Below, one piece after another: positions 7,802-59,090 of a stretch of DNA of 64,000 nucleotides (its first letter is position 1; every line of letters starts with the position of its first letter). The DNA is from Okamejei kenojei (Eukaryota). The position numbers and the translations under genes are program-made. The notes under the pieces are model-generated. The model did not search any database, was not told where the DNA came from, and saw only the letters and a list, made by a program, of their open reading frames with translations. Location of the stretch: assembly GCA_035221665.1 (NCBI GenBank), contig CM069160.1:3472001-3536000 (forward strand). The letters are read 5' to 3'.

Positions 7802-7881
7802 ATGAAGTCTAGTCTCAGTAAATCGATGCAAATAGAAAGTGTTTATTATCCCTATTCATGCAAACATATTGACGTTTCCTG
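7802..7881 (+). pseudogene. GPR139-like: GPR139-like GPCR locus A1, exon 1 (frameshifted)
   Basis: M..MQIESVYYP/IHANILTFP followed by G|GTAAT donor, matching the YP..P-G|gt pattern of the other exon 1 copies. Confidence 0.55.
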
Positions 7882-10369
7882 GTAATATTCATTCTGGAGA
7901 AGTTCCTAACAGTAGTTCGTTTGCAGGCGTTTGTTTCATGGACGTTAATGACTATGAAACAAAATGGGAAAGTTTGGTTTGTATCAATGTCATAAACACT
8001 TTCTGTTATGTCACTAGCCTACTTGAGAAGTTGCCATTTGAATCATAGCGCAAGGACGGAGAATGAGAAAAAGCGGGGCAAATCTGGGGGAGCACTCGGC
8101 GACGGCACGCGTTGACCATAATGGGGAACGGTTTCTAAGTGGACAAGGTAAAGAGTTATACGGAAACGAGAGAACATTTAATTTGGGAAGACAGGGTTTA
8201 TGTTTGCATGGCTTTCGGTTTGAACAGGTCCCGGAGTGTAGAGACTAAGCACGCGACCTTTCAATAGGATCAGATTGATTCTGAACCTAGAGGCCTAGAA
8301 ACAGTGCACGCTCTGATCCAAAGGAGTGTCTGTGGCAAGGAAAGCGATGAGAGATGTGGGTCGTACGGGATCATTCGCCGACTTCAGAGAGGCATGATCG
8401 TGTTGAATATTTAACCAAGGCTGAATAGTATGTTACCTGCTGTTTCTCAGATTCCACAGTTCTTCTAGTAGAGAGAAATATGCCGAGATAAAATCGATTC
8501 TTCACGAGAAACTATAAAGCATTGGAGTTGAGCGATGGGAATTCTGCGGTATTATCGTCATATTCCGCATAACATCCCCCTGACAGTTCATAAAAAATTT
8601 ACATACAATAGGAAACTCGATGTGGGCTGAATCATTTGCATCCGACCATCGGTTTATATTCGATCCTATTAAGCCCGAATCGCGCTGCGTGTGCTTGTTG
8701 GTTCTCCGACGGAACGTGCGCAGGAATCCAAGCGTACTATGCTGATTTCCGCACATCTGTGGCGACGGATAGGACGTCGAGCTCCAATGTCACTTTCAAA
8801 GTTGTTAGCGCCAGTTAGGAAATTAAAAAACAAATACTACATAGGACTCGAGTAGCTTTGAGTTGATGGTAAATAGAAGTCTGAGAGCGTTCAGTTGATA
8901 CGCACCTGATGGTGTTCTCCTACGTAAGATGGAAGAGGGAGTGATGTGCGATGAGATCCACACAGTCCTTGAATGCTCGTTAAATCCTCAGTTCACTACA
9001 GGAAAAGAATATTATAAATGTAAGCGACAGCATAGTATAGAGAACGGATATGTGGCAGTTAATGATGTGAATTTAATGCGTATCCTTAATCATAATAATT
9101 ATTTTTAAATTAAATTGTTTGATTATTTTGTGAGTGTTGTGTTCCTTAAGCCTTGCACTTTTAAAATGGCTGTTGTTTTGTTCTACCTGTGCGTTAGAAC
9201 GAAAACTAATTGTCAAGTTGTCAAAAATGATGTCTAGGCCCTTTAAGCCGTCTAACCTGAAGCCTAAACGAGTCCGTAGATCTGTACACAGCAGTACATA
9301 TCTTTTCTAGCTTTGGAGAATCTCTGACCTGGCCCCCAATGTACCAAGCACCAATATTGCCACAGAAGCGGGTAAATCCGCGGATTACATTCAGGGCACA
9401 AGTTCAGTTCCGAACGACTCAACCATTGCACACAGTTATTGTGAGAGAAATAAGGTCACAGCCCTTAAGAGTTACCTCTTTATACCGAATAATACATCTG
9501 TTACCCTATGGAATATTCATGGCTGATATTATGAAGATATAACTATGGCGTGATATAAGCGCATTTAACAGAGCTCTTATGTGGAGTTGCGTCCTGTTAT
9601 ATTCATTAATATACACAATCAGAGCACAACCGCGGGTGCAACATGAAATGCCACCTGGAACATATTAACGCGGCACAGTATTTGGGAGATAAGTAAATAC
9701 CCAGCACTTTTTGTATATTCCCAATAAGTTCCGTTCTGACAGACTGGACGCAAATTAAAACGACAGTGTCCAAATTATGTATTAATTAATCGCAAATGGA
9801 TAGTAAAACATAATAGAAAGGGCGTCACTCAGTGCACACGTCCTCCATAACAAACTACACTAACATTCCGATGTTTTGACGTGCAATCAAATCGACAGAC
9901 AAGTGAGTGCAGTGCTGGGTCTCGTGGAAAAAAGAATAAAACGCAGTCCAAAAGTCAAGACTCGGAGTAATTTATTGTCATAAGTCTCACATAGAATAAT
10001 GGTAATTCTTACTTGTACAGCAAAACAAATATGTAAACACAGTACTCTGATCCTGGGCAATTTCAGCTTTGTTCTGCAACATTGGTGGAAAAACTGTGTA
10101 GGCACCGTTTCGAATCGGATATTTCGATTTTGAAGAGAAACTGGTCCGTCGTACCTAGGGTTGGTCTATTTCTCTCCTCGGATGCTGCCAGAATGACTGG
10201 CTCTTCTGCACTTTGTATTTTTTTCTCGTCTTGAATCTCCAATAGTTTTGCAACAAAGCGAAAGATAACTTAATGCGACGTCAACATGTCAAATCTCCCT
10301 CAAAACGTAGTCCATAAAATTTGTACCAGAGAATAGAGAGTATCTATATATGTTTCTTCTATGTTACAG

Positions 10370-11290
10370 CGGATTGTGGCAATCATCATTTAACTGTCGG
10401 GAAATTGGTGGCCTCTCATATGATCACCCGTTTCCTGGTGGCTATGGCAGCAGCTGATCTCATGGTCCTGATAGTTAAAGTGTTCTGTATGAAATATAGA
10501 ATGCTTAGTTTCTCAAAATTAATTCCTCAATTACAACCACCCATTTGCAGTCTGAACCTGCCCTTCTTTTTGTTTTCCCGGATTGCTCCGCTGGTTTGGG
10601 GGAGTGGTTTAGGGGGGTGGGAAAAATAACCGTGCCCATTCAAACCGTTGATCGTATTATTTATATTGCCATCTGCCGTTTGCGAAAACGATATTGCAAC
10701 TGAAAGAACTGTATCTATTTGATGCTGTGATATGTTCGCTTAGCAATTAGACAATTGAGTGCTTATTTAATATATAAACCACGAGCAATAATCGACAATG
10801 TGCCATGGTTTTTGTTCGTAAGGACCAATCTGTTTACATCTCCTGTATGGCAGCTTTTCTTTGGTTTGATACTATCCTAAACCAAATTGTGCCATTGTTG
10901 ATGATACTTCTTAACTCCTGTTACCATAAGGACAATTTAAATGTCCAACAGGAGGCAAGACTTCACAGCCAGAATACACAAAGGGAAACGATCCGAGATT
11001 GAAATCCGAAGGAAATCTATAATTTTATTGCTTGCAATAAACAGGAGCTTCATACTCTTGTGGATGGTAATATTCGTGACCTTTCATTCTGTGACATTCA
11101 CAAATAAATCAAACATTATCAACCAATTATAATGACCCCTTCACTGTTGCTGAAAAATCTGGTTATATGCTAAAGGAGTTTAAGTGCTTGCACGAATACA
11201 TTTATTTATGCTGCATCCCAGGCTCAATTTAGAGATGAATTGAAGAGTATGTTTAGGTACCCTCTAACGTGCGTCAGAGGGTTACTGTGA
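10370..11290 (+). pseudogene. GPR139-like: GPR139-like GPCR locus A1, exon 2 (many frameshifts)
   Basis: Acceptor TTACAG 10364-10369. Fragments ITRFLVAMAAADLMV (TM2), IIDNVPWF, FLWFDTILNQIVPLL (TM5), RRKSIILLLAI..FILLWM (TM6), TNTFIYAASQAQFRDELK (TM7/H8); TGA ends at 11290. Confidence 0.85.
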
Positions 11291-12374
11291 TACATTCAGT
11301 CAGTTCAAAAACCGAAAGGGAAACTCATTGCAGAACTCTATTTTTTGCTTCATTTTGGCTGACAATTGTTCAGAGAGATATCTCAAGGACCTGTGTGATT
11401 TAAAAACTATGCGTGATACTCATTCAGATCAAAGCGTTTATTGTCAATTGCAACAAAGTGCAATTTATTACCTCTTTAGCAAGAACGGCGTATTGCGATG
11501 GTGGACACAACAATAAATATAGCAAAGAAGGTAGAGATTAATGCAAAGATTACCGTGCAATCTAAAGACGTGCAGAAGTACTAAAGTGTAAATACGGATT
11601 AAAACGTGCGAACTAGAGTTAACACTAACAGTATTACGCAACACCTCCTTGAAAGGTACGTGAAAGAGATGATTGGTTCGGGATCTAATTACTGCGAGGT
11701 ACAAGTCAGCCAGTAACAGCCAATGATAGCTCTTTTGAGAATCATGTTATCACATGCTGAAGTATGTAACTTCTTCCAATCCTGCATTTGTATCAATCCT
11801 TTGTATAAAGGAACGATCTAATTCCATGCACTCATTCAATTTATGACTTTGAATGTGAGGGCAGACAATACAGTTACGGGCCAGGGTCAATTACGTGCAG
11901 AGGGATGTTCTTCGTCTCAAGATGGGTACCGACCCGAAACTCGCCTATCCATGTTTTCCAGAGAAGCTATCGGGCCCGCTGAGTTAATCCAGCACGTCGT
12001 TGAGACTTCCGTGCAGTCAGCATCTTTATTTCCTTGTGTCCACATGACCAGAATAAATATGGAAATGAGAAAAATGACTGTATTAGACACAATTATTATT
12101 ATTATGTAGTAAATCGCTCTCTGTGTCTCTGTCGCCACTTGGGCGTGATCGTGTGCGTGTGTGTTTCTGTGTGGGAGATGTATGGTAATGCTGAGACTTT
12201 AGTTGTGTTTGCATTGGTAATCCCCTAGACTTTGTCGTACTGAAGGAAATAGAAAGTGTGTCCACCAGTTACGATGTGTCATAGTGTATGATAGTGGTGA
12301 ATGGTTTCTTGCACCGCGACTTTCACCCGATACTAACTGAGAATTCCGCAATGGAATCTATCAGCGGAGAAGAG

Positions 12375-12570
12375 TTCACGCACTAATCAGTATCAATGGT
12401 GCTGACGTGAAAACGGTTGAGAGGTTCAGCTATTAGCCGTAAGTATTACCATGAATCTGTCAGTTAGTGATCAGCCAAGAGGCCTATACTTACTAAATAG
12501 ACCGAGGAAATTCTGCACGTCACCAAAGACATTTAAAAACCTTTACAGATGTGCCGTATAAATCATACTA
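12375..12570 (+). mobile_element. Rex1/Babar LINE RT C-terminal fragment
   Basis: Degenerate ISINGADV..VERF, RLY.L.R.RKF..SPKT..NLYRCAV..IL motifs. Confidence 0.6.
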
Positions 12571-15108: not shown

Positions 15109-15342
15109 GAACAGTCGCACAATATTCAGTCCAAGACCACATCCCAGTTTGCTGAACTTCACCAGATGCTCAGTGAGAAAGACGTGCGAGTACTGGCAGA
15201 TATCGGGGAAGAAGAGCAGTTAATTCTGAATACAATGCACAAAAATCTTCAAGAGATTCAAGGGAATATCAATTCCATTCAGGAGGAACTATTAAAGCTA
15301 CAGGAACAGATGGATCATAAAGACAGTGTGATATTTCTTAAT
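15109..15342 (+). pseudogene. Isolated TRIM-family (nuclear factor 7/A33-like) coiled-coil exon
   Basis: 234-nt open phase 0-0 exon between TTTCACAG acceptor and GTGAGC donor: EQSHNIQSKTTSQFAELHQMLSEKD..EEEQLILNTMHKNLQEIQGNINSIQEELLKLQEQMDHKDSVIFLN. No other TRIM exon recognised. Confidence 0.7.
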
Positions 15343-16979: not shown

Positions 16980-17572
16980 CAGATGGATAAATAGATAGAT
17001 GGATGGTTGAATGGATGGATGGATGGATGGACGGACGGACAGACGGACAGACAGACAGACAGATAGATACAGAGAGATAGTTAGACAGACATAACAGGTC
17101 AGATAGATAGATAGATAGTTAGACAGACAAAAACAGTCAGATAAGANNNNNNNNNNNNNNNNNNNNNNNNNNNNNNNNNNNNNNNNNNNNNNNNNNNNNN
17201 NNNNNNNNNNNNNNNNNNNNNNNNNNNNNNNNNNNNNNNNNNNNNNNNNNNNNNNNNNNNNNNNNNNNNNNNNNNNNNNNNNNNNNNNNNNNNNNNNNNN
17301 NNNNNNNNNNNNNNNNNNNNNNNNNNNNNNNNNNNNNNNNNNNNNNNNNNNNNNNNNNNNNNNNNNNNNNNNNNNNNNNNNNNNNNNNNNNNNNNNNNNN
17401 NNNNNNNNNNNNNNNNNNNNNNNNNNNNNNNNNNNNNNNNNNNNNNNNNNNNNNNAGATAGAGAAGGACAGACAGACAGACAGACAACAGACAGACAGAC
17501 AGACAACAGACAGACAGACAGACAGACAGACAGATAGACAGATAGACAGACAGAAAGACAGACAGACAGACT
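16980..17572. repeat. (GATA/GGAT/GACA)n tetranucleotide repeat spanning N gap 17147-17455
   Basis: Direct reading. Confidence 0.95.
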
Positions 17573-18922: not shown

Positions 18923-18993
18923 ATGGACAACCTATAATCGCAACAGATTGAGAACAGTTTACTACCCATTCTCGCACTGATTGGCATTTCCAG
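18923..18993 (+). CDS. GPR139-like: GPR139-like GPCR locus A2, exon 1 (indel-damaged)
   Basis: M..QPII..QIEN.YYPILALIGI-P then G|GATAAGT (apparent GTAAGT donor with a 1-nt insertion). Confidence 0.65.
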
Positions 18994-19569
18994 GATAAGT
19001 TATATCTGATGTTCGTATGACTCGTGTTTGTTTTACCAAAGAAAATCAAAGGCAAACATAGTACTTACCGTCTAGGACAAAAAAACCTCGCGGAGGTTTG
19101 CAATGCAAGTGAAACGATCAGAAGATTGAAACACTAGAATATAGATTTGAAGTGCAGAAGAACTTGCAGTTGTTGAAACCGAAGATACACACAAAAAGCT
19201 GGTGTTATTCCGCGGGTTATGATGTTGCCTGACTCGCTGATTATCCAGCGTGTGTCTATGACAGCGTGAAGTTCCATTGTAATATAACGTTTCAAGAATG
19301 CACGAAGAAGAAAATGTGATCACTTCATGAGCATGTTTTACAAGAGTTGCGATGCTTTTCTTCATCATATCATCTCCAGCACGGTCCAATGTAGGCAAAA
19401 CGGATATACACATATTGGAGATCGGTGTTTTATTAAGGAAAATAAGTTAATGCAGAAACTAGAATACAATTCAGACATGATGATTGAAAACGTGTCAGCT
19501 ACAAATGACCAACATGGTGAAACTCTGTTCTTATCATGAAAGTCATAAGTTTATGGATATTGAAGTAGA

Positions 19570-20600
19570 AGTAGTCCAACGCCCATCATCTCCTTCTAAA
19601 CTCCACCGAGTACAGAGGCCCAGTGCCGACAAATGCTCCTCGTTCTTAACCTCTCATTCATGGATCATTCTTATAAACCTCCTCTGGACCCACTCCTGAG
19701 CCAGACAACAATCCTTCCCCAATATAGTGCCCAAAACTTCTCACAATATTCCAAATGTGACCTCATCGCGCCTTACTTTATTTACTACCGATTCCAGACT
19801 TGCAGATTGAATCTTTGATAGCCTGCACCAGCACTCCCCGTGTCCCCTTTGCACCTCCGATTTTTGATCACCCCCATTCAGACAATAGTCCTATGTCTTT
19901 AATCCTACTACCAAAAAGCACGAAGCGACAGATTTGGCTAACACTTTTTACGCATCTGCTACTTCTCTGCCCATTCTCTTGCTCGCAACTGTCCAAGTCT
20001 TTTCTGTAGCGTCCATGCTTTACCAACACGACCGGCCCTTCCACCCATCTTTCATATCATCCCCAAATGTGGCCACAAAGCCTTCAATCTCCTCGTCTAA
20101 TCATTAATATACAACATAAGAGCAAGTGGGTCCTAAACAGACACGCTGCTGAAACTCCCGCTGGGCACTGGTAGCCAACGTGAAAAAGCCGTCCTTTATT
20201 GCCAACTTTGTCTTCTGTCATCCAGCCATCCATGCTAGTAATTGTCCGTTGAGACCGTGGAGCTCTCATCTTCTTATAGCCTCCACGAGTGCACCATATC
20301 AAAGGCTTCTAAAATCTATGTTAACACCATCTACTGACTCTCCTTTGCAGTCCCTACTTTCTACATCTTCAAATAATTACCAGCAAATTGTGAAGCAAGA
20401 CTCTCCTCTTTCACAAAGCCATACTGACATCGGCCTATTTTATCGTGACTTGGCCACAAAGGACTCGCCAACTCATCATTTAATTAAATGGATTCAAATC
20501 TAACCAAGCACCACGAAGGGTTAGTCTAAACCAGCCTTTTGTTCCCACTATTTTGCTCCATCGCGCTCTTCACGTGCAGCGGGGTATATAGGACATTTTC
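19570..20600 (-). mobile_element. Degraded CR1 RT fragment within the A2 intron
   Basis: Reverse-strand remnants of RT region (GAAGGCTTTGTGGCC..GATGAT, TTTAGAAGCCTTTGAT). Confidence 0.65.
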
Positions 20601-21439
20601 CAATCATTGAGAAATTTCGAATTAATTGAAATCTCCCATGAACACCATAGCATTGCTTTTTTTTTTTTATTTCTATATTCATCCATGCAAGAACACGAAA
20701 TATCTTTCGACAAAATGGTTAATTCCTCGGTTTATTACGTTTGTAAATAGACCATTGCGCGATCTCCAATGTCTTGCTGATTCTTCTGGCATTTTTCATT
20801 CGGAGAATAATTTTTGAAGCACAGAACACTGGAACAGTCCAGCACATGAACTGACAATGTCGGTGCAGAACATGAGAAGATAAATTAACCTAATTTGCCT
20901 GCAAATGATCCATTCCCTGCATTAAAACACGTGCCTATCTAAAACCCTCTTCAACGTCAATTATTGCATCCGCCCACCGCCACATGACAATGGCAGCGCA
21001 TTCCAGGCACCAACCACCCTCACTCTCAAACGTTTCCCCTTTCATTTTAAAGTCATTATCTTTCGCCTTTCCTGCAACGGGGGAGAAAAAAAGTTTTCGA
21101 CCTGCCTACCATATCTATAAATCTCAAAATGTTATATACTTCTATCAGAACCAAGCTCTACCTATGTCCTTCCAGACAAAACAATCCAAGTTCTGTGCAA
21201 ACAATACTTACAGCGAATACCCACTAATCCAGTCATAATGCTGGCAGATGATGTTCCATTGACACAAACAACGCCCTCAAATTAACGTTAATGGAAATGC
21301 AAAGCATGATTTTCACATCCCGTCCAAGATCATAAACCCAATGTAATATCTATCCATGTTTTTTTTATTATTGCATTGAAATCAAGAGGGGAAAAATATG
21401 CCACATGTCTAAATTCCACTAATGGCATTCCACATGTCC

Positions 21440-21472
<33 letters not shown>

Positions 21473-36172: not shown

Positions 36173-36208
<36 letters not shown>

Positions 36209-43791: not shown

Positions 43792-44110
43792 TCACTGCCG
43801 CGCTCGTTTAGTGGGTTTCGTAAAGCAATGAAAAATAATTTTCGTCCCGTTCTTCAGCTCCTGTCTGTATGTGCTTTGGGTCTTTGCATAGATACAAGTA
43901 TTGGCGTAGGAGCTGATGCGAATGAGCAAGACCCACACCTCATTGATGATGTTAGAGGGCCTTGTGAGATCCAAGCCCACAAAATTAATAGTAATTCGGG
44001 CACAGGAGCAAATCATCGCTCCCGTCGTCCACTGTAACATGGAGGTTGCCGACACCGTGAAGAGTAAGGCAATAGACTTACGCCGATTCTCCTCAGTGTC
44101 CTTGCCATCG
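43792..44110 (-). pseudogene. GPR139-like: GPR139-like GPCR locus B0, 3' fragment only (ICL3-TM6-TM7-H8)
   Basis: GKDTEENRRKSIALLFTVSATSMLQWTT..NEVWVLLIRISSYANTCIYAKTQSTYRQELKNG..Q*. Similarity stops at ~44110. Confidence 0.85.
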
Positions 44111-45800: not shown

Positions 45801-46097
45801 ATCTAGATGACCAAGTTGTTATCCGCGATGCGGTGGCACACGCTTTATGCATATTCCCAGGTCAATGTTATTCAGTCCCTTGTTCAGCGAAACAGCTCTA
45901 GTCGGAAATGGGGCACTGAATAGAAACACAAGGATCTTGAACAAAATATAACGTGCTGGACGAACTGAACGTGATAGGCAACATCTGTAGAGGAACTGAC
46001 ATGTATTGTGTCGGATTGGGGGCTTCCACTGAATGGTGAACTTCGGTGAGTGGAATAGAGAAAATATAGACGCAAAAATCAAATTCCAACTCACGGC

Positions 46098-47001
46098 TCA
46101 CTGCATCGCCTGTTTCATGGGGTTAATAATGACACGAGTTAGAATCTTAATTCCGTTCTTCAGCTGCTCTCTAAACTTGCTTTGTGTCATTGCATAGATA
46201 CAGGTGTTCGCGCAACAGCTGACCCGAATAAGCAAGATTCCTACTTCGTTGGCGATGGTCGAGGGTCTCGTGAGATCCGCGCCAACGAAATTGACGGTGA
46301 CCCGAGTGCAGATCATAGTTACCGTAGCCGTTGTCCAAAGTAATATGGAGGTGCCGGACACTGTGAAGAGTAAAACGATGGCATTGCGCCGATTCTCCGC
46401 CTCGCTGTCCTTGCCTTCCAGTGACTTCAAGCGCCGGCGGACTCTGTTTGGCTGCTACGATGTTCCTGACCGTCAGCCCGTTCAGAAGTATGATAAGACC
46501 AAAGGGGAGTAAAGAGAGAGAGACGCTACATAGCCAGGTGAAAGCCACCCAGCCGATGGAAGTGAAGTACTCGGCTTTGGGCCGGCATCCCCAGTTCACA
46601 TTGTCGATGGTGAAAACGTGGCTCATACATGAAGTGAAAGGGGATGTACTTTAAACAGCTCAATGCGCACAAGGACACAATGATCACTCCGGCCGTCTTA
46701 TCCGTGCAATACGTGACTCTCAGCTTCGGGCAGCAAATGCTGACAAAACGATCAAAGGTGAAGGACACGGTTAACCAGACGGAATAGTCCAGGGTGGCGG
46801 CCCGCAAGTGTATGTATGAAGAGCAGAATGTGCTGAGGGAGAGGAAGGAATGAGGGTTGTGATAAATGTAGATTTCCCTGAGCAACACGTGGAAGATGAC
46901 CACCAGCAGATCGGACATTGCCATCGCCACCATGTAGCGGGTGATTCCTTTGGTGAGACCGCACTTTCCCCGGCACAGGATCGCAGCCGTCAGCACGTTC
47001 G
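46098..47001 (-). CDS. GPR139-like: GPR139-like GPCR locus B1, exon 2 (two +1 homopolymer frameshifts; otherwise intact)
   Basis: ORFs 46526..47032, 46171..46626 and 46098..46430 join into a 7TM protein: MAMSDLLVV, SVWLTVSFTFDRFVSICCP, NWGC, LLPFGLIILLNGLT, ILLW, ANTCIY, SKFRE. Acceptor TTTTTCACCCAG. Confidence 0.92.
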
Positions 47002-48624
47002 CTGGGTGAAAAACAAAGTTGGGGGAATTCACTAATTAATGTTCCGTCATGAGTAACTGTGAGGAAAGGATTTGTTGGAGAGTAAACAATGCAGACAGCC
47101 ACATAAAACGTAGAACATTACAGCATAGGTACACGCCTTTCACAGCACACTGTATCCGCGGCGAATTTGATGCCAGGTTAAGCTAACGTCTGTTGCCTGC
47201 ACACTAGACACGCCTCTCAATTCTCTTCACACATATACATATATATGCAGAAGCCTTCTGAAGCCCGCTATGGTATCTGCCTCCACCAACTGACCTGGCA
47301 GCGTGTTCCAGGCACCCAGCACTCTCCGTGTAAACGAAAGCTTCCCATGAAAATGTGCTTTAAACTTTGCCACTCTCTAAAACGTTATGAACATTGAGGG
47401 TGGCGGATGCCTAGAATGCGCTTCCAGGATTGGCGGTAGAAACAGATTAGAAAGTGAATTTGGAGAAGTTTTTAGTTTGACACATGGGTAAGCAGGGAGT
47501 ATGGGAATATGGATCAGGTGTATGAGATTAGTTTAACTTGCCATCACGTCAGCATGGACATTGTAAGCCGAAGGTCCTGTTCCCATGCTGAACTGTTTGT
47601 TGTATGTTCTTTGATGTATGTTCTGTGTTCTATTACATTGGCCATTTAGACTTTTGCCCTTCTGTTCCTGGGAGTCTGTGGTTCTTAAAGAGTCATGACA
47701 TTGGGAGCTCTGAAGCTAAACATAGAATAGATCTTCCTGCTCTAGCAGCGCGGATGCTGCCATTAACACCACTTGTGTGGCTATTGGAAAGGCTGTCTGC
47801 GCTTATTGCCAAATATCTCTCGGCATCAAGTGTAAGAGTCTTTACATTGCCAGGACGGAGTTGTATTAGGCACAGGGATCAATCGGGTCAAAGTCCCGCA
47901 CCAGGAGTCTGTCCGTTTTCCCAGCGCCGCGGAACTCGACGGTCAGGAGCTTAAATCAAAGTTTTCTTTGCCGAAGCAGGAGAAATTCGCGAGACGCGGG
48001 CGAGGACATTTTGCACAAAAATGAATGAGACTAAACGATATAATACAATGTCCCCCCTCAAGCGGAGTTGAGAACGATGAGGTTCCTGTAAGGAAAGCGA
48101 AGCGAAGGCGAAAAGACACAGAGCTAAGGAGGCACCGAGACTGCGAATGCAAGCGGCAACAGAGAGCGGAAGGAGCTGACAAAACCGATATCTCAAAGTC
48201 ACAGCTGGAATAACACGGCGGGTCAGGCAGCACCTCCGGAGAACATGGGAAGGTGACGATTCGAGTTGAGGCACTTCCTATACATGGACGGGAGAGCAGC
48301 AGCAATCCCATACGGGGAGCAGTGAGAGAATCTCGCAGAACTGCCGTCAGGGATGTTGTTTGAATGTTGCATAGCTTGAAGAAACTTCGTAGTGGAGTAG
48401 TGAAATGTGGAAACAAGATACTGGAGATGCCGGATTACAAAATAAGGTTCTGGAGATCCATGTGTTCCAGAGCTTCTCCTGACCGGCTGCGTTAGTCCCG
48501 CACAGCTGGAATGTTTTTTCTTGTAAATCAGCATCAGCAGTTCTCTGTTCCTGCAGCGCAGCACAGAACGTAGGGTAACATTGAGACACCGCAGACACAT
48601 GTTGAACGATGTGCCCGGACTTAC

Positions 48625-48694
48625 CAGGGATTCCAAACGCCGCCAGAATTGGATAGGAGATCTCCTTCACGTATAGAATCGGAGCCCGCCCCAT
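48625..48694 (-). CDS. GPR139-like: GPR139-like GPCR locus B1, exon 1
   Basis: 70 nt, MGRAPILYVKEISYPILAAFGIP+G|GTAAGT; splices in frame to exon 2 (PANVLT). Confidence 0.9.
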
Positions 48695-48753
48695 TCTGTA
48701 TGATCTCGGCAGCTCACTGTTCTAACACGATGGAGCAAGGAGCGCGACTCCGT

Positions 48754-48785
48754 TGCTCATTAATACTCGCGCCAACCCTCCAGAG
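48754..48785 (-). promoter_or_regulatory. Conserved core-promoter motif of subfamily B (locus B1)
   Basis: CTGGAGGGTTGGCGCGAGTATTAATGAGCA, shared with B2 and B3. Confidence 0.6.
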
Positions 48786-49544
48786 CATTCACGGAGTGAT
48801 GAAACAATGACGTTAGGCATGGACATTTGAACAAACATTTCCACGCAATTCCACACAGAGGGCTGTGGCGGCCATGTCAGTGGAGATTTTAAGGCAGAGA
48901 TAGACAAATTCTTGATTAGAACGGGTGTCAGATGTTATGGGGAGAAGACAGGAAAATGGTATTAGGAGGCAAGATCAGCCATGATTCAATGGCTGAGTAG
49001 ACTCGATGGGTCCAATGGCGCAATTCTATTCCAATAACGTGAACTTATGAATGTTAACTCCTAATTGGAGGAGCAATACACATTGCAAATATTGTAGGAT
49101 GACACGGGCTCAATACGAACCTGAATCGCAATAAACGACGTGAGATGACGTGCATTTCACGTGGCGGGATTCGCTTCGTTCACTGGGCGGCCGATGTGTT
49201 GGATGTCGGAGGATTTCTAACGCGGGTAAAATCCGAAATACAATCTGTGCTTTATCACATTATTCCCAAGTAAGAGAGAATAGGGTATTTCACAATGTTT
49301 TGCTCAGGTTGTTTCATTTGCTGCCCAATATGAATGCTTGATGTTGAACTCAGAGAAAATTTGCACGATGTCCTTGCAATAGGTGTGCGGTTATAAATTC
49401 CACATCTCATATTGATATCACCTCAAAGTCCAAATTAGAATTTATCCTCCCGTCAGCAATTTCATGAGATAATTATCCTCATATCTCTTATTTTGGGACC
49501 GATGGACTGCTTCAATTGAACGATAACATTGAGCTGAAAGCCAC

Positions 49545-49800
49545 AAGCCTGTTCTCCAAATCATCTCCTGCATCCCGAGTTCCGGATATGGCCGCCTGTA
49601 TATCGGCGAGACCAAACATCGGCGACTGCTTTGCTGAACACCTGCGCTCGGTCCGCCAACGTCCAAAGGACATTCCGTTTGCTTCCCAAGCGGATATTTT
49701 TTGTCCCGGACCTCCTCCATCGCTAGACAGAGGCCACACGGAAACTGGTCATAGAGTCCCATTGCAAGGAAATTGACACTTTGGCCTAAACTGCTCATGC
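49545..49800 (+). mobile_element. Penelope GIY-YIG fragment
   Basis: ..ISCIPSSGYGRLYIGETKH../GDCFAEHLRSVR. Confidence 0.75.
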
Positions 49801-49809
49801 TGACGGCAG

Positions 49810-51075
49810 TGTCCCACCCACACTAGTCGCCCCTGTCCGCGTTTCGCCCATATCCATCTGAATCGCTCCTTTCCATGCACCTGTCGAAATGTCTTTGAAA
49901 TGATGTCATAATATCTGCCTCAACTACCTCCTCTGGCAACTCATTCAATATACCCACCACCCTCTGTGTGAAAAGTGTGTCCCTGAGATTCATATTAAAT
50001 AGTCCCCCTCTCACTTAACGGCAAAGTCGTCTGGTTCTTGATTGCCCTTGTCTGGGTTAAAGATTCCGTGCATCGACCCTATTAATTCCCATCCCGATCT
50101 AATACACCGCTGTAAGATTACACTTCATCCTCTTGTGCTCCGAGGAATACAGCCCTGACCTGCCCAATCTCTCCCTATAGCTGGCGCTTTAAGTTCTGCT
50201 GACATCCCCGTAAATCTTCACTGAACTATTTCATTCTTAACGCCATCTTTCCTATAGCAGGGAGACCAAAACTGAGCTCGATACTCCAAAAGTGATGTAA
50301 TCAACCTTATAGAACATGCAACACCTCACTCATATCTGCATTAAACACCGCTATCTGTTCCTCAGCTCACTTGCCCAACTGCGCAAGATCCTGCTGTTAC
50401 CTTTCATAACCATCTTCGCTATCTACAATACAACCCACTTGTATGGATTCACACATTTACTAATCCTATCTTGTACATTTTCATCCAAATCTTTAATACA
50501 AACAACAAAGAGCTTTGGGCCCAGCACCGATACTAGAGGGACACCACGGTCACGGGTCTCTAGTCCGCGAAGCAACTTTCCAGCAACACCCTCTGTTTCC
50601 TTTTCCATGATACCAATATTCCATCCAGTCGGCTAGATTTCCCTGGAGTCTATGCGATCTAACGTCTCAAAGTAGATCACGACACTTAACCTCATCAAAA
50701 GCCTCGCTGAAATCCAGAAAAATAATGTCTGCAGCTCGTTCCTCATTCCGTTTTATTGTTATATCTTCACAAAAGTCGACAGGACTCGTGAAACTCGGTG
50801 TCCCACGTACAGCACCATGGCAACTATCCCTAATCACCCTTGTCTATCTGAATGCATACAGACCTTATCCATTTACCACAGATGTTACGCGAACTGGACG
50901 ATAGTTCCCAGGGTTTTCCTTTTAGCCCATCATAAATTGCAATACAAACATTAACCACCAGTTTTCCGGCATCTCATCCCTCTTTAATTATGATGTATGT
51001 AACTAAGGCAGGGCGCGTGTATTTTTTTCTCTGGTTTCCGACAGCGTCCCCAGATATATCTGACCAAACCCAGGA
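49810..51075 (-). mobile_element. Degraded CR1 LINE
   Basis: FTQRVVGILNELPEEVVEA, GVPLVSVLGP.LF. Confidence 0.75.
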
Positions 51076-51078
51076 GAT

Positions 51079-52036
51079 ATGTCTGCCTTAGTTAGAGCGC
51101 GCCGTGCAAACTCAGACGTGTATCTTGATCTTTTGAATCTCAGAAACATTGCCAGAGACGGAACCCTGGGATCCCCAGCCCAGCAACTGATGTCCAGTAC
51201 GACAAGACCTCAGGTTCAGATTGCTCAGCAACAGCTGGTGCCACGGGTACTGAAGCCTGCTACTATCCAGAAACGTGTTCAGGAGGAGCACGACATTCAG
51301 AAACGATCATATGGCAAATTCTGCAAACCGCTAAAGCCTCTACTGCCGGGCCAGGTCGTTTCGTTTACACGGGTCATTCCCAGCTGGGTACTGTTGTCGG
51401 CCCGGCTGACGAACCACGATCTTACCTGGTGGACTATGAGGGAGCAGTTTACCGCAGAAGTCGCCAACAACCTGCTGGTTGTTCGGGAACCACGCCCCGC
51501 CACCAGCCGGACCCGATGCTTCACCGCTTCAATTACAGCCGCCTGTTCCCGAGCTTTTCTACCGATCCCCGCATGCCTTACTCCCCTCCACGTCCCGCGG
51601 TTGTGACTAACCACGGTGTTTCCACCCCTGCATGTTTCCGCTTTCGGCCACCACAAGTCTCTCCCGCGCCTTTCTCGCTTCCGGATTCTCCCAATCCGCC
51701 TAATCTTTCAGAGGAGGGAGGAGAGGGCTTGGTCCGTGCGCGTTCGGGCCGTGTTAGTAGACCGACTGATAGATATAGCGAATATGTTTAACTCTAATGA
51801 CATGGGTGTCCTTTACACTTAGTCTTTAGGGGGAAGGATATAGATTGGCTTATGCATGTCAATCAATCGTATATGTTAGCATCACTAACCCCACCCTACT
51901 GTAACATTTATAACATATATAACACCTACTTCCTGCACTGCCCAGTTCGTGCATCAGTCAGGCTGCTCTGACAATAATCATCCTCTCTGCTGCTAGGGTC
52001 TATATACTGATTAAAGATGATTTTGGATCACATAAC
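51079..52036 (+). mobile_element. Gypsy/Ty3 LTR retrotransposon 3' remnant (integrase C-terminus, PPT, 3' LTR)
   Basis: LLNLRN..LGSPAQQLMS..RP, PRSYLVDYEGAVYRRSR, RSGRVSRP..Y; PPT AGGGGGAAGGA 51828-51838; ~200-bp LTR with ATTAAA. Confidence 0.8.
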
Positions 52037-52559
52037 GTGTATGACTCCTGTTCACAGTGAAGATGTAAGAAAGCGTAAACACCGCAACAGGTAGGTTGGG
52101 AGATCAACACTACGTCAACAGCGATGCAAGATGTAGTGGACAAAACTGTGGACACTGAGAGGGGCTTTGGTCTTCCTGTCCACGGATGCTTGAAATTCAG
52201 TACAAGTAGGTCAGGGAGAAGGACCACTAAATATTTATCTGTACCGACCCGCGTGGTTACTCTTTAATTTGCGCTGGGTGGATCCCAGAGAATATGCCGA
52301 ATTTGATTGAAATAAGGTAGCAAACGATAGAGGGGATTGAAGAGTGTATATGTTGAAATCCTGAGCAAAATACAAAGTGGTGGGTAGACTCAGCGGGCCA
52401 GGCAGCATCTCTGGAGGGAAATAGACAGACGACCTTTCGAGTCCGGTGGTCTCCCGTTCAACGAGTCCGCTCTAACCGCAAGTGGGGGCGTGGGACGATG
52501 CGTTTTCCTGATGGGAATAGAGAGAACAGCCGCGTCGTATTCCAACTTCAGCACTCGGC

Positions 52560-53468
52560 TCAATGCTGCGACCGTTTCGTGGGTTTAATAATAAAACGAA
52601 TTAGACTTTTAATCCCCTTCTTTCGACTCCTGCATGAACCTGCTTTGCGTCATTGCGTAGATCCAGGTGTTGGCGCAGGAGCTGAGCCGAATGAGCAAGA
52701 CCCCCACCTCATTTGCGATGTTCGAGGGACTTGTGAGATCAGAAGCCGACAAAATTAATGGTAATTCGGGTACAGATGAAAGTCACCCCTCCCGTCGTCC
52801 ACAGTAATATGGTGGTGCCAGACACGGTGAACAGTAAGACGATGGATTTGCGCCGATTCTCCGCCTCGGCGTCTTTGCCTTCCGGTCCTTTCAAGCGCCG
52901 GCGGGCCCTGCTGGCCGCTATAATGTTTCCTGACCGTCAGCCAGTTCAGAAGCAGCGTTAAGACGAAAGGGAGTAAGTAGAGAGAGAGAGGTTACACATC
53001 CAAGAAAAAGCCACCCACCAGATGGAAGTGAAGTAGGCGGGTTTGGGACGGCACCCCCAGTTCACACTGTCCACGTTGAATCGTGGCTCGTACATGAAGT
53101 AAAATGGGATGTACTTTAAACAACTCAGCGGCAACAAGAACACAATGACAAAGGCGGGCGGTCTTATCCGTGCAATACGTGAGTCCTCAGCCTCGGGCAG
53201 CAAATGCTGACGAAACGGTCAAAGGTGAAGGACAAGGTTAACCAGACGGAATAATCCAGCGTGAGGATGCGTAGGTATACGTACGAAGGGCACACCGTGG
53301 TGTGGCTCAGGTAGGACTCAGGGGTGTAGTAAACGTAGATTCCTTGGATCAATACTTGAAAGAAGATGACGAGCAGGTCGGACATTGCCATCGCCACCAT
53401 GTAACGTGTGATTCCTCTGGAGAGTCCGCACTGTCCCCGGTACAAGATCGAAGCCGTCAGCATGTTGG
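52560..53468 (-). CDS. GPR139-like: GPR139-like GPCR locus B2, exon 2 (several 1-nt frameshifts as assembled)
   Basis: ANMLTASILYRGQCGLSRGITRYMVAMAMSDLLV..SVWLTLSFTFDRFVSICCP, KYIPFYFMYEPRF..NWGC, RRKSIVLLFTVSGTTILLW, ends KPTKRSQH*. Acceptor TCTTCTGCAG. Confidence 0.9.
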
Positions 53469-53574
53469 CTGCAGAAGACAGAATTAAGAGCACAATGACC
53501 AGACAGTTAACCGACTCTATTGTCGTCTCTGTTACACTAAATAGAGATGACAACGGCTGCGATTGGACCTCATT

Positions 53575-53880
53575 GGGGAGAACAGCTTAGTGGTGCAGCT
53601 GGTGAACCCGCTGCCTCACAACACCAGCGACAGGATTTATCCTGGTTTCGGGGGCTCGCTAAGTGGAGTTTGCACATACTCCCTGTGACACATGGGTTTC
53701 CTACTTATGCCCAGATATCCTCTCACTCCTCAAAAACGTGAACGTGTGTTGGTTAATTGGTCTGCATGAAATTGTCTCCAACGCGTAGAGAGGGGATGTC
53801 AAAGTAGGATTATATTAAAGTAGCGCGAACGGGTTAGCTGAACAGGGCCAGTTTCAGTGCTGTGAGGCCAGGTTGAACTA
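53575..53880 (+). mobile_element. HE1/V-SINE-like SINE in the B2 intron
   Basis: TGGTGCAGCTGG A box and GTGGAGTTTGCACAT..CCCTGTGAC V-like domain. Confidence 0.6.
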
Positions 53881-54499
53881 AATCACTACGTGAATCGAAG
53901 TTGCCACAGATACGGTAGTGGTACTTAAAAGGATAAGCATATGATTATGCTGGGTGTGGCAGCATATTGGTTAAGTCCAGGTAGGTAATAGATGGTCTTT
54001 GCATTATGTTTTGGCGCACATTCTGGCTGAAGGGCATAGCTAGTGCTGTACTATACTATGTTTTGGCTCTCGAAACAGAGGACATCTTTGTGAATTATAC
54101 CAAAATATTCGCGGGATGCTCGAAATATTCGCAATAACACCGTCACCGATCCATGAAGGAAATAATATAGCGAATGGGCTGCACAGTGAGAAATTCATTA
54201 TTAAAACAGAGACATCTTGCACGTTACAGGCCTTCCTACTCGTACCTCAAACTCCCAGTCATACAGATACAACACCAATCCCTGCACATGATCCCTTCAC
54301 CTTGTATCCAACCTCTTTTTCTACCTTCCCAGACGATGCCACTAGCCAATGTACTAATCACAATTTACAACGACCTGTAACCTACCGATAACGAGAGTAT
54401 TTTCCTGTATTAGCATGGCCTCTGAACTGAAACAACGGTGTTGTTCCATTGCACACTGATGGTGCGTGACCAGTTAAGTTTTTTTTTCCAGCATTACAG

Positions 54500-54502
<3 letters not shown>

Positions 54503-54552
<50 letters not shown>
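54503..54552. repeat. (AT)n microsatellite
   Basis: Direct reading. Confidence 0.95.
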
Positions 54553-54555
<3 letters not shown>

Positions 54556-54789
54556 CGCTATATATTTTCGCTATCTTCAGTCGTCTGCTTCTCGCCGATT
54601 AAATTATCATTTCGTTGTGTTATTAACACCCGCGCTAATGACAGCTCCAAATGGAAATCAGGGCTTGAATTAACTTTTCTTTCTTCAGTTTATTTCTTCA
54701 TACTCTGCGTGGCCTGTCTGCCAACTTGTGAACGAAATAGCTCTTAAGCCTAAGGAGACTTAAATCTCATCTCACTCACCTGTACGCAC

Positions 54790-55020
54790 TGAAGATAGAC
54801 TCAAAATGCTGTAGTAACTGAGCGGGACAGGTAGCATCTCTGGAGAGAAGGAATGGGCAACGAATCGAGTCGAGACCCTTCTTCAGAAGATGCTTCAGAA
54901 TCTGGTCTCGACCTGTAACGCCACCCATTCCTTCTCTCCAGAGATGTTGCCTGTCCCGCTGCGTTACTCCTGCATTTTGTGATTATATTCGGTCGGAAGT
55001 AGCATCTGCCGTTCCTTCCA
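54790..55020. mobile_element. Inverted pair of Penelope-type terminal repeats in the B2 intron
   Basis: 54790-54886 is the reverse complement of ~54900-54990 (GCGGGACAGG..CATCTCTGGAGAGAAGGAATGGG / CCCATTCCTTCTCTCCAGAGATG..CCTGTCCCGC). Confidence 0.75.
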
Positions 55021-55264
55021 ACACTTCGAACGACATGGGACATGGCGACCGATTGTGCAGTTCCCTGAGAAGGTTCTACAATTGTCAGATAAAATCGCCT
55101 TACTTCCTCAAATCTAATTTCGCTACCGAATGTACGCGTTTGATTTGATTGTATTTATGTAAATGTTTCTGTGATCAGCTTGTATAGCATGCAAAATATA
55201 GCCCTTCTGTATACCTCGGTACACATGAGGATAATAAACCTAAACCTAAAATGATTGATCTTAC

Positions 55265-55334
55265 CAGGGATCCCAAACGCCGCCATAATCGGATAAGCGA
55301 TCTCCTTCACGTACAGAATCGGAGCCCGTCGCAT
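55265..55334 (-). CDS. GPR139-like: GPR139-like GPCR locus B2, exon 1
   Basis: 70 nt, MRRAPILYVKEIAYPIMAAFGIP+G|GTAAGA. Confidence 0.9.
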
Positions 55335-55400
55335 TCTGGACGAGTCGCAGTGTCGGCAGCAAACTCGGAGAAACAGTGGATCAAAGAGCGCGGCTCCTCT

Positions 55401-55430
55401 CCTCATTCATACCCGCGTCAATCCTCCAGT
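55401..55430 (-). promoter_or_regulatory. Conserved core-promoter motif (locus B2)
   Basis: CTGGAGGATTGACGCGGGTATGAATGAGG. Confidence 0.55.
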
Positions 55431-56111
55431 GGCTACTGGGAGTTACGGGGCAATTACATTAGTCACGGACACTTTAACAAACATCTCCAGACAAACGAAG
55501 CCATTTCCCACTTCTTGGTGCAGGAACACTCAATGCAAAATCATACAGAAGGCCGGCCAATGGTATTACCACAAGTATTACCGACCAGTCACTTGATCCA
55601 AGATGCAATTTCATAGTATTTTCCTGAGCCGGGAGTCGCTTCATTCACAGGGCAGCAGACGCGTTTAATGTTACGAATTTTAACACTGGTGAATCCTAAG
55701 TATAATCCATGATAGACTATTGGATAATTTGTTTTACTCTGCGGAAGTGGAATTGACGCGCATCACAGTTATTTGGTCACGTCAATAGATGTGCAACATT
55801 GAACATGGCGCTGCGGATCATGAGGGCCTGTCGTTGGCGTTAGTGAATATTTCCATGTCGCACTTTAATCTCACCGCACAGTTCAAACTGTAACCTCGTT
55901 GCAAATAACGTAGTTAGATTTTTTCCTTAGTTTTTTTTAATTTTGTGACAGATGCCTATTTCATACAAACAGCAATACATTGATCTGGTGGAAATCGGAA
56001 AGGATATAAAACACGAAAAATATCGGTTAATATTCAGCAGGTGATCGCATTTACGGATCAGAATGAATAACTAGGTATTAGACAGCCCGACCGGAAGGTA
56101 ACCATGGGATC

Positions 56112-56539
56112 TACAATTTAGAAGATTGAGGCGGGATCTTATAGAAACTTACAATATACTTCAGGCGTTGGATAGGCTAGATGCAGATGCAGGAAGATTG
56201 TACCCGATGTTGGGGAGGTCCGGAACAAGGCGTCACAGTCTAAGGATAAGTGGGAATTCCTTTCGGACCAAGATGAGGAAAACATTTTTCACACAGAGAG
56301 CGGTGAGTCGCTGGAATTCTCTGCCACAGAAGGTAGTTGAGGCCAGGTAATTGGCTATATTTAAGAGGGAGTTAGATGTGGCCCCTGTGGCTAAAGGGAT
56401 CTGGGATATGGAGAGAAGGCAGGTACAGGATACTGAGTTGGATGATCAGCCATGATCATTTTGAATGGCGGTGCAGACTCGAAGGGCCGAATGGCCTACT
56501 CCTGCACCTATTTTCTATATTTTTATGTTTCTATGTTTC
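56112..56539 (+). mobile_element. CR1 3' end
   Basis: ORF 56126..56350; TTTCTATG tail. Confidence 0.9.
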
Positions 56540-58215
56540 AAATCCTCTCGAAATAAATGCTCTCGTTGTGTTTGCCTTCCTTACTATCGATTTGACATGC
56601 AAATTAACTTTTTGGGAATCCAGCACGCGCATTTTCAAGTCCCATTACACCTCTTTTTGAATTATCTTCCCATTTAGAAAATAGTCTATGTCTTTATTTC
56701 TACTTCCAAAGTGCATGCCTCCACACTTGCTACGTTGTATTCCATCTTGCACGGCTCTGTCCATTCTCCCAACCTGTCCACGTGCTTCAATAAAGTACCT
56801 GCTTTCTCTCCGCGACACGCCCCTCCACCTATCTTTGTATCATGTGCAAACCTGGCCACAAAGCCTTCAATTCCCTCATCTAAGTCATTGATATACAACG
56901 TGGAGTAACGGCCCCAGCACCGACCCCTGCAGATCTCCGCGAGTCACTGGCAGCCAACCAGAAAATGCCCCCTTTATTGCAACTATACCTTCTGCCATCG
57001 AGGAAACCTGTTCTCCATGCTAGTATCTTTCCTTTGATACATTAAGATTTCATCTTCATTAGCAGCCTCACGTGTGACATCTTTTCGAAGGCTTTATGAA
57101 AATATAGGTAAACAACATCCGCGCAAACTCCTTTGTCTGTTCTGGAATTTACATCCTCAGAGAATTCCAACAGATTCGTCAGACCTTGCTGCCTTTGGCC
57201 TATCTTATCGTGCTTCGTTGTACTCAGACACATCATCCTTTAGGTTGATCTAACATCGTGTCAACCATTGAAGTCAGGCTGTGTTTTCCACTCTTGCTCT
57301 TTGCTCCCTTCTGGAGCAGCAGGGTAATATGTGCAAATGTACAATCTTCTGCAACCAGTCTAACTCCAGCGATTCTTGAAAGATCACTGCGCATTACATC
57401 GCAATCCATGCAGCCACCTCTTCCAGAACCATAGAGTGCAGTCCATCAGGTACAGATGACTTATCCACTTTCAGACCTTTCAGTTCCCCAAGCACCATCT
57501 CCTTACTATAAGCCATTCTACTAACTTCCATCCCCTGACTCCCTTGAATTTCAGACACGTTGCTAGTGTTTTCCACTGTGAAGACTGATGCAAAAAAGCT
57601 ATTCAATTCCTCTGCCATTGCTGCGTTCACCAATATCACTTCCCTAGTATCATTTTCCAGCGGGCCGATGTCCACTCTGGCCTCTTTCATATTATTTATA
57701 TATTTGAAAAACTCTTGCTATCCTCTTTTATATAATTGGCGCCTTATCTTCGTATTTAATATTTTCTCTCCATATTACCTTTTTTAGTTACTTTGTTGTT
57801 TATTTTTAAAACAATCCAATCTCCTACTTTCCCGCTCATCTTTGCAATGTTTTTGCCTTCTCTTTTAGTTTAGTGCTATATTTGACTTATCTTGTCAGCC
57901 ACGATCGCCTCATTCTGCCTCTAGAATCTTTCTTCCTCTTTGGACTGTGAAGATTCTTCCGTTATATTCCCAGAAATCACTACATTTCTTTTGCACATCG
58001 GTTCCTGCTCGGTTAAAATTCGTTCAAATTTGGTAAGCTCCTACTTCATGTCCAGCTGTAATACCGATCCCTTTCAAATTGCAGGTTGAATATTATCATA
58101 TGGTGGTCGCAACCTCCTAGTGGCTCCCTTATCAAATCCAGTTCATTACACAGATCCAGAATTGCCTATTCTCTGTCTGCTCCACTACAAATTCATCCTC
58201 GAAAAAAACATCTCG
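56540..58215 (-). mobile_element. Degraded CR1 ORF2 fragment
   Basis: YINDLDEGIEGFVARFAHDTKIGG, LTNLLEF, KVDKSSVPDGLH. Confidence 0.85.
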
Positions 58216-58925
58216 GGTCCCTCACAAAATGTGTAGGGAATAGGCAGATGGCGTTTAAGGTCGGAAACCTTCCACGGACACCTACTACAGGGTGATGTAT
58301 TTCAAGTTGTAATCTTATTACTCTCTATACGTGTCGCACCATCTGATTAAATATTCTGGACATTCTGTGATGTTTATATCAAACATACTCAAACTTTCAA
58401 CATATGCCGGGTGTTTTTATTTTTGCTTTTGAACAATAATGAATCATCTGGACGTAAAGCAGATGTAAACTACGTTTAACGAGAAGATTACATTGGCGAT
58501 ATTGCCCAGAGGAATATACTGCCGTGTCCGAAGAGGGCTGTGGATTTGATAGGCTTCAACTCCACCACACGATTTTTAAACGTTGTTTCCCTGAATGATT
58601 CACTTTTGAATTCAACCTACAACTTAAGCAAATCGTTGTGTCATGATCCTTCCATTTCCTGTGCCTATAATTGTGATCAATACCGGTAAATATTTCAGAG
58701 GTAGTTCTGCTAATACTCTCCAACAACAAACCAACCGGTGCCTTGCCCGGTTGTACAATAGATTCAGCGAAAGGGTCAGCAATATGTCCGCGGACTCATA
58801 CATATGTTTTTGCATAAAGCATTCCTCCGCCAAGGGATAGTTGAAATTACTTCACTGTACGGAAATAAATGTGTTTGTTCAAGAGACTGTGAATAATACC
58901 TGGGATCCGTCACTCCCCTATCTCA

Positions 58926-58955
58926 CTGGAGAGATGGCGCGAGTATTAATGAGCA
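58926..58955 (+). promoter_or_regulatory. Conserved core-promoter motif (locus B3)
   Basis: CTGGAGAGATGGCGCGAGTATTAATGAGCA; 21-nt identity to the B1 motif. Confidence 0.6.
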
Positions 58956-59020
58956 TCTGAACCGCGCTACTTGCTACATTGTGCGCCTGGAATTAACGCC
59001 GTCACAGGGACTCTTCCAGA

Positions 59021-59090
59021 ATGGGACGTGCTCCAATTCAGTACGTCACTGAAATCATCTATCCGATCCTGGCGGCGTTTGGTATCCCTG
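59021..59090 (+). CDS. GPR139-like: GPR139-like GPCR locus B3, exon 1 (exon 2 not seen in the window)
   Basis: 70 nt, MGRAPIQYVTEIIYPILAAFGIP+G|GTAAGC; not in the ORF track. Confidence 0.88.

Follow-up and report, generated by a model that had tools for sequence, protein, structure and literature searches.

A tandem array of two-exon class A receptor genes, likely in the skate MHC, as a candidate repertoire of chemical sensors

A 64,000-nucleotide stretch of the Okamejei kenojei genome (contig CM069160.1; the whole stretch analysed is called the window below) contains a tandem cluster of G-protein-coupled receptor (GPCR) genes from a family that is real, large and uncharacterised, a variant of the expanded GPCR array kind. 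Judging from its relatives, the cluster likely lies in the skate major histocompatibility complex (MHC), and our preferred reading, held at about even odds, is that the receptors of this two-exon array let sensory cells detect a range of water-soluble chemicals. Sharks and rays, reputed to have a good sense of smell, possess only about 20-62 canonical olfactory receptor (OR) genes (mean 43.8 per cartilaginous fish, in the available text of PMC10869828), and a family of at least comparable size, outside the receptor families surveyed in that text, sits under one automatic label, 'probable GPR139'. If the family is sensory, the count and history of vertebrate chemoreception change; an immune family would instead be an innate set of receptors, so far unrecognised, in the most ancient living lineage that has an MHC. 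An earlier, sequence-only reading of the cluster was partly confirmed in what it observed and partly supported in how it interpreted it. To that reading we add a test for assembly artefacts, a comparison of the binding pocket with that of GPR139, and the MHC placement, a location that it did not contain.

Six loci of one receptor family

Searches with tblastn using 120, and later 238, family proteins located exon 2 at five loci of the window and a clean exon 1 at three; the garbled first exons of A1 and A2 were read directly from the sequence. E-values down to 1e-127 exclude chance resemblance. Six-frame translation of the window gave several broken GPCR frames and no intact one. The sequence-only reading had described six loci of one architecture over 7802-59090. 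The interval proved exact, running from the ATG of A1 exon 1 (7802) to the last base of B0 exon 1 (59090), and the six loci do belong to one GPCR family, but both exons are present in only four of them (A1, A2, B2 and B1); B3 is a 3' remnant of exon 2 and B0 a lone exon 1. Likewise, the shared architecture holds for the clean 70-nt first exons of B2, B1 and B0, which end in G-I-P-G|GT, but the first exons of A1 and A2 are garbled. Introns are of phase 1 and 1.6-2.6 kb long. The mixed orientation stood (A1, A2 and B0 on the plus strand; B3, B2 and B1 on the minus strand), as did the two divergent subfamilies (30-44% amino-acid identity between A and B, 61-73% within B) and the motifs, with DRF in B1 and B2, DRY in A2, and NTxIY in A1, B1, B2 and B3. 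The nearest proteins are from skates, at 87-92% identity (Amblyraja P0001, Leucoraja P0025 and P0137). In the list below, TM denotes a transmembrane helix.

7802..7881, plus strand: A1 exon 1 (locus span 7802-11290), ATG to a phase-1 GT donor, indel-garbled as assembled; MQIESVYYP fits the family N-terminus
10370..11290, plus strand: A1 exon 2, running from TM1 to the C-terminus; shark A-type proteins are 52-55% identical
18923..18993, plus strand: A2 exon 1 (locus span 18923-22560), 71 nt as assembled; 12/15 residues match Leucoraja P0137
21619..22560, plus strand: A2 exon 2, 87% identity (248/285 codons) to Leucoraja P0137, 11 frameshifts, 0 stops
43792..44109, minus strand: B3 (whole locus), 3' remnant of exon 2 from intracellular loop 3 to the stop, last 105 codons, 5' part absent
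46098..47001, minus strand: B2 exon 2 (locus span 46098-48694), 91% identity (272/299) to Amblyraja P0001, two single-base insertions as assembled
48625..48694, minus strand: B2 exon 1, 70 nt, clean, phase-1 GT donor
52560..53468, minus strand: B1 exon 2 (locus span 52560-55334), 92% identity (270/294) to Leucoraja P0025, six frameshifts and 0 stops as assembled
55265..55334, minus strand: B1 exon 1, 70 nt, clean, phase-1 GT donor
59021..59090, plus strand: B0 exon 1 (whole locus), 70 nt, clean, head-to-head with B1

The exon at 55265..55334 was paired with B1 exon 2 because the N-terminus of P0025 matches it. The A2 exon 1 donor reads GA as assembled, likely an insertion error. B3 is 77% identical to Amblyraja P0042 with 0 frameshifts and 0 stops, sits behind a piece resembling a long interspersed nuclear element (LINE), and is likely a true pseudogene fragment; tblastn with family proteins found no exon-2 or exon-1 match upstream of it. 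For B0, tblastn with 238 proteins found no exon 2 in 59091-64000.

The sequence-only reading had noted damaged copies and had inferred birth-and-death clustering. As assembled, every full exon 2 is frameshifted: frameshift-aware alignment to guide proteins counted 8-11 breaks in A1, 10-12 in A2, two in B2 and six in B1, depending on the guide. Against the closest guides there is one stop in total, in A1, where one more distant guide gave four. Short-read contigs were compared over 45900-53600; they came from two samples of organism A and one of organism C, in four public runs altogether. The short-read comparison as a whole was confined to B1, B2 and A1. In B1, the contigs lack the window's extra bases at 52743, 52926, 52979 (2 nt), 53156 and 53184; in B2, they lack the extra base at 46448 and show two gaps over 46431-46738. 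These base differences come from 12 of 47 table rows, with those at 53184 and 46448 each seen in two of the four runs, and for the remaining two B1/B2 breaks the conclusion was drawn from the number of gaps in records that cross them. In the middle of B2, the records differ from the window at 8/306 and 11/348 letters and may represent an allele or a close paralogue. Over A1 exon 2 the contigs disagree throughout, two stretches being replaced (133 letters by 101, and 98 by 109), and the stop at 10938 falls inside one of them. An organism-C contig has 891 nt there, in whole codons, from GTG at 10376 to TGA at 11288, a span that shows frame length and not absence of stops; A1 exon 2 is probably intact in the genome.

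Since the breaks tested in B1, B2 and A1 are absent from the short-read contigs, they are mostly assembly errors and not decay. We rejected the view that the four full genes are pseudogenes, given 29-30 frameshifts with only one stop against the closest guides and breaks that, where compared, the contigs do not share. Single-base insertions are numerous in the assembly, which also has long runs of C or G (3946-3977, 36173-36208); gene and pseudogene calls made from it, pseudogene counts included, are unreliable. Organism-A contig depth over B1 was about twice that over B2; depth does not give copy number and was not used. The comparison of B1 with B2 shows purifying selection, with a ratio of nonsynonymous to synonymous change (dN/dS) of 0.31 over 260 codons, and the ratio ranges from 0.24 to 0.38 among the B copies, B3 included.

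Relation to GPR139 and spread of the family

The family belongs to the class A (rhodopsin) GPCRs. Pfam 7tm_1 is found in fragments from the window and in full relatives, and 85 family members keep the class A signature: N1.50 in 77/85, D2.50 in 79/85, C3.25 in 83/85, R3.50 in 84/85, P5.50 in 84/85, W6.48 in 85/85, N7.49 in 85/85 and Y7.53 in 83/85. The deviations are P6.50, present in only 2/85, and T in place of P at 7.50. A structural model predicts seven helices plus helix 8 and a hairpin in extracellular loop 2 (ECL2), at pLDDT 87. With regard to OR, TAAR, V1R or T2R membership, Pfam scans of six family proteins returned only 7tm_1 and one weak Srx match. The very short N-terminus described earlier fits the clean models, 59 of 101 of which begin the GKCGL-type loop at residue 35. 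This first loop, RGKCGL, is near-invariant, and the family-wide loss of the TM6 proline and the NPxxY proline points to an unusual activation geometry for class A.

The sequence-only reading had called these genes GPR139-like and had suggested amino-acid receptors. GPR139 is indeed the closest solved human receptor by sequence profile (E 1.4e-20 and 76.8 bits, against 4e-14 and 55.6 bits for the next). The profile, built from the 85 members, was run against solved structures only, and the best 60 of its 90 matches include no GPR142, MRGPR or FPR receptor. The second suggestion fared worse. The Trp/Phe site of GPR139, defined by mutagenesis and structures, comprises F3.33, H5.43, W6.48, R6.51 and N7.38 (available parts of PMC5430874 and PMC8807744). 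Mapped by hand from the profile alignment, four of its five residues are unconserved in the family, with F3.33 in 9/85, the H5.43 equivalent in 19/85, R6.51 in 2/85 and N7.38 in 7/85, and only W6.48 is kept (85/85); E3.32 occurs in 0/85. In addition, GPR139 lacks a cysteine at 3.25 or in ECL2 and has no disulfide (PMC5430874), whereas the family keeps both cysteines (C3.25 in 83/85, the ECL2 cysteine in 82/85). A 128-residue piece matched GPR139 at E 3e-7, and overall identity was not high. The predicted fold also matches opioid, somatostatin, ghrelin and orexin receptors; no single receptor stood out in the fold search, where GPR139 ranked 29th at 20% identity. Thus, with the Trp/Phe site lost, the cysteines kept and P6.50 lost, these genes appear to be distant relatives of GPR139 and not copies of it. 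We rejected orthology to GPR139 on the site, of which only W6.48 remains, the disulfide cysteines and the roughly 20% identity.

Likeness to GPR139 and GPR142 nevertheless extends to the short N-terminus, PAN at TM1, SxW in TM3, W6.48 and the database name; the differences are an ECL2 about 12 residues longer, the lost P6.50, the kept TM3-ECL2 cysteines, and dozens of copies per genome versus one. The window intron at G-I-P|A-N aligns with G-L-P-A-N of GPR139, where GPR139 may itself carry a phase-1 intron in TM1 (GLP|AN). A further likeness is to the MIP, sex-peptide and FMRFamide receptor group, reported as the nearest kin of GPR139/142 (available text of PMC8514136): feature look-alikes from it stand at 0.97, and automatic annotation calls some members of the family sex-peptide receptor-like or FMRFamide receptor-like.

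Family members were gathered with a 128-residue piece of B2 (best 120 of 337 proteins) and an A-type profile (best 120 of 2701 at E 0.001, a count that may include other GPCRs and was not used as family size). The earlier suggestion of a large tandem family of cartilaginous fishes auto-annotated as 'probable GPR139' was upheld, as 228 of the 232 listed proteins come from 21 named species, which comprise sharks, rays and a chimaera, and all 19 long gene-model forms (19/19) are likewise from cartilaginous fishes. Among the listed proteins, Heptranchias has at least 54 on 22 contigs and Heterodontus at least 46 on 10, 31 of them on one. No bony-vertebrate protein is among the 232 listed matches, absence from bony vertebrates not having been directly tested. 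The named reedfish gene tables contain no 'receptor 139', and all 13 occurrences (13/13) in the available supplement of PMC10751288 are from sawfish.

A quick tree of 117 rows, family members only (112 of the first 120 matches, 270-410 residues long, plus the five window copies), places B1, B2 and B3 each beside a skate protein in a clade that has good support and to which shark genes also belong, and groups A1 and A2 with Heterodontus genes. The B copies thus have near one-to-one relatives in other skates. We rejected a skate-specific expansion, because both subfamilies have shark members; subfamilies A and B are old and common to sharks and rays by sequence comparison, a point absent from the sequence-only reading. 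In Heterodontus both subfamilies occur on one 74.5-Mb contig, which suggests that the mixed A/B array is likely older than the split between sharks and rays.

MHC linkage and neighbouring genes

The sawfish has 13 'probable GPR139' genes on chromosome 34, ten of them in tandem at 13.38-13.68 Mb, and this ten-gene array lies between B2M/BRD2/MHC-Ib and TRIM/MHC-Ib (available parts of PMC10751288 and its supplement). The same source reports elasmobranch MHC-Ib genes nowhere but in the MHC. Its available main text contained no mention of GPCR, GPR or G-protein. Among the listed matches, 11 of 12 from sawfish fall on one contig of 19,913,265 bp, ten being in the B clade, and the six that were checked have consecutive accessions. 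This length fits the chromosome 34 table, whose last gene ends at 19.83 Mb (PMC10751288 supplement), so the contig would be chromosome 34 and the window the matching skate array. By analogy with these relatives, the cluster in the window is likely to sit in the skate MHC.

Neighbours also appear in merged gene models. In little skate, one model fuses an MHC class I domain with an A-type receptor; in bamboo shark, one fuses a TRIM with a B-type receptor. Where the partner is recognisable and not a repeat, seven of eight are immune-type (one MHC-I, three Ig/CD22-like, two NLR and one TRIM), the eighth being named a sodium channel. Other arrays sit on other contigs, some beside NLR and immunoglobulin (Ig)-superfamily genes: five models (P0250, P0254, P0070, P0253 and P0255), from chimaera, catshark, sevengill, basking shark and little skate, merge with NLR or CD22/CEACAM-like Ig genes and show adjacency there. 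For catshark P0182 and white-shark P0040, the available supplement sheets carry no gene names and gave no firm placement on an MHC chromosome; the P0040 accession is near that of white-shark b2m, and the P0182 accession is not near its b2m. Within the window, one neighbour typical of the MHC cluster is present:

15109..15342, plus strand: TRIM coiled-coil exon, AG...GT, open over 78 codons (Pfam TRIM_CC E 2.7e-5, below the curated cut-off)

A tblastn search of the window with one TRIM query found no RING, B-box or other TRIM exon, although further parts could lie in the sequence gaps 6092-6591 and 17147-17455. Searches of the window for tRNA genes and Rfam families gave no match; the sawfish array has U1 and tRNA neighbours.

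Possible functions of the array

Pocket variability is part of the evidence for a repertoire of chemical sensors. Across the 85 proteins, mean entropy is 2.28 bits over 29 pocket positions versus 0.35-0.97 in the cytoplasmic halves of TM2, 3, 5, 6 and 7, and pairwise identity in the pocket and the cytoplasmic half is 0.51 and 0.82 among 11 sawfish paralogues and 0.41 and 0.78 among 31 Heterodontus paralogues. The subfamilies differ in their charged pocket residues: B has, for example, R3.32 and D3.37, whereas A has D or E at 2.57. Polar ligands would fit such pockets. Large tandem arrays, a variable pocket and a conserved G-protein face are what a chemosensory-type repertoire would be expected to have, and the counts of at least 54 and at least 46, set beside the mean of 43.8 canonical OR genes, support the same reading. 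So do the short N-terminus, the seven-helix model with its ECL2 hairpin, the MHC linkage of relatives and the signs of retained function, namely the B1/B2 dN/dS of 0.31, the near one-to-one skate relatives and the frameshifts missing from short-read contigs. The simplest mechanism would be many ligands and one signalling face. Each paralogue would bind its own ligand, a peptide or an amino-acid-like molecule, in an extracellular pocket under the disulfide-tied ECL2 hairpin; all paralogues would signal via the same G protein, which the analogy of GPR139 suggests to be Gq/11 or Gi; and tandem duplication would widen the range of ligands, as in OR, TAAR or MRGPR arrays.

The family resembles the OR, TAAR, V1R-ORA and T2R families in its tandem arrays, compact genes, short N-terminus, variable pocket and many copies, but differs from them in a conserved coding intron in TM1, in matching Pfam 7tm_1 only, and in that no positive selection is shown. 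MRGPR and FPR clusters are also lineage-specific and of class A, have varied pockets and serve both sensory neurons and immune cells, but no sequence kinship to the present family is shown. The mammalian extended MHC holds an OR cluster, which an MHC-linked array resembles, and MHC-linked odorant receptors in mammals have been proposed to tie sensing to MHC type. A broader proposal would be that cartilaginous fishes have a further large chemosensory family, unrelated to OR, TAAR, V1R and V2R and at least as large as the known olfactory repertoire, with one old MHC-embedded array possibly tying peptide sensing to MHC type. We put this forward tentatively and lean against it.

Several observations weigh against a sensory role. 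In any set of GPCR paralogues the pocket varies more than the G-protein face, and therefore the contrast above is not specific to sensory receptors. For the pocket residues, the one pair analysed, B1 and B2, gives a dN/dS of 0.34 over 22 codons and shows no positive selection. An O/E (EBF) promoter motif has 0 matches in the window against 2.8 expected. No MHC gene lies within the 64-kb window, the MHC position coming from relatives, and the neighbours observed are immune genes. The one expression datum found is a weak one. In little skate, LOC129716095, a 'probable GPR139' whose family membership rests on its name, is listed in 1.5% versus 0.1% of nuclei of one embryonic dorsal root ganglion neuron cluster, which would favour a sensory role, but the adjusted p is 1 and the same authors scored 'little or no expression' in embryo sections (available parts of PMC13694853, Table S1). 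No RNA record was listed for the B2 gene and one RNA run compared with A1 gave no match; neither result bears on expression. The array is a candidate sensory repertoire.

The neighbourhood could also be read as pointing to immune or barrier sensing, in which leukocytes or epithelia would use the family to recognise peptides and metabolites that come from microbes or from damage, much as formyl-peptide receptors or mast-cell MRGPRs do. In sawfish the array is surrounded by MHC-Ib, B2M, C4, TRIM and butyrophilin genes within the MHC, seven of the eight merged-model partners are immune-type, the window holds a TRIM exon, and the predicted fold is of the peptide and chemokine receptor type. However, the merged gene models are annotation artefacts and show adjacency only. 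Mammalian OR, vomeronasal and FPR clusters, too, sit among TRIM, NLR, butyrophilin and Siglec/CEACAM genes, the extended MHC included, and therefore the neighbourhood does not decide between sensory and immune use. We consider an immune repertoire a serious rival, though less probable than the sensory reading.

Less probable still is that the family is an expansion of the GPR139/GPR142 type, whose members would respond to aromatic amino acids or endogenous peptides in the brain, gut or pancreas. Among solved structures GPR139 gives the best profile match (1.4e-20 vs 4e-14), and GPR139/142 fall together with the MIP, FMRFamide and sex-peptide receptors of invertebrates (available text of PMC8514136), clusters of which are among the look-alikes. 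Against this stand the mostly lost Trp/Phe site (N7.38/39 in 7/85, R6.51 in 2/85, E3.32 in 0/85), the C3.25 and ECL2 cysteines that GPR139 lacks, and its 29th rank by fold at 20% identity. Little skate also appears to have a separate gpr139 (LOC129709592, orthology from the authors' naming), found in a spinal-cord cluster in the available text of PMC13694853. It is very unlikely that the copies are passengers of little function, many of them decaying, whose number grows because the regions around them are unstable and full of repeats. One true remnant (B3), one lone exon 1 (B0), a window rich in LINE pieces and the fact that no expression is shown would fit such passenger duplication, but dN/dS is 0.24-0.38 among the B copies, the frameshifts are assembly errors where tested, and both subfamilies are common to sharks and rays.

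The sequence-only reading knew of no functional characterisation, and we likewise found no paper on the family in the GPR139 and cartilaginous-fish literature, most subscription titles lying outside the search. That search took in PMC12294341 and PMC8514136, and a wider one brought up surveys of the canonical families. The 2019 white-shark genome paper may mention extra copies of an orphan GPCR. The family goes unmentioned in the main text of a catshark sensory-organ paper, in the zebra-shark genome paper, and in the searched supplements of nurse-shark spleen and catshark cartilage studies.

Three of the B loci share a 17-nt upstream motif, with three matches in the window against 0.07 expected:

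58937..58953, plus strand: motif upstream of B0
48756-48772, minus strand: motif upstream of B2
55402-55418, minus strand: motif upstream of B1

By alignment of B0, B1 and B2, the motif lies about 60-85 nt upstream of the ATG, within about 150 nt of shared 5' sequence, and could be a promoter element or reflect plain paralogy. B1 and B0, both with this motif, stand head-to-head 3.7 kb apart (55334-59021).

Remnants of LINE-type reverse transcriptase and endonuclease lie between the A and B groups at 33040-34900 (plus), 35976-37019 (plus), 37705-40352 (minus) and 42145-43458 (minus), and Pfam RVT_1 was found in both LINE pieces scanned. The AT-rich stretch at 60900-61240 (minus), whose short reading frame is interrupted by a stop and which gave no Pfam match in the piece scanned, is probably a transposon remnant. 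At 51129-51788 (plus), an open frame of 220 codons, with no Pfam match, lies in a multi-copy stretch and is likely a retroelement piece.

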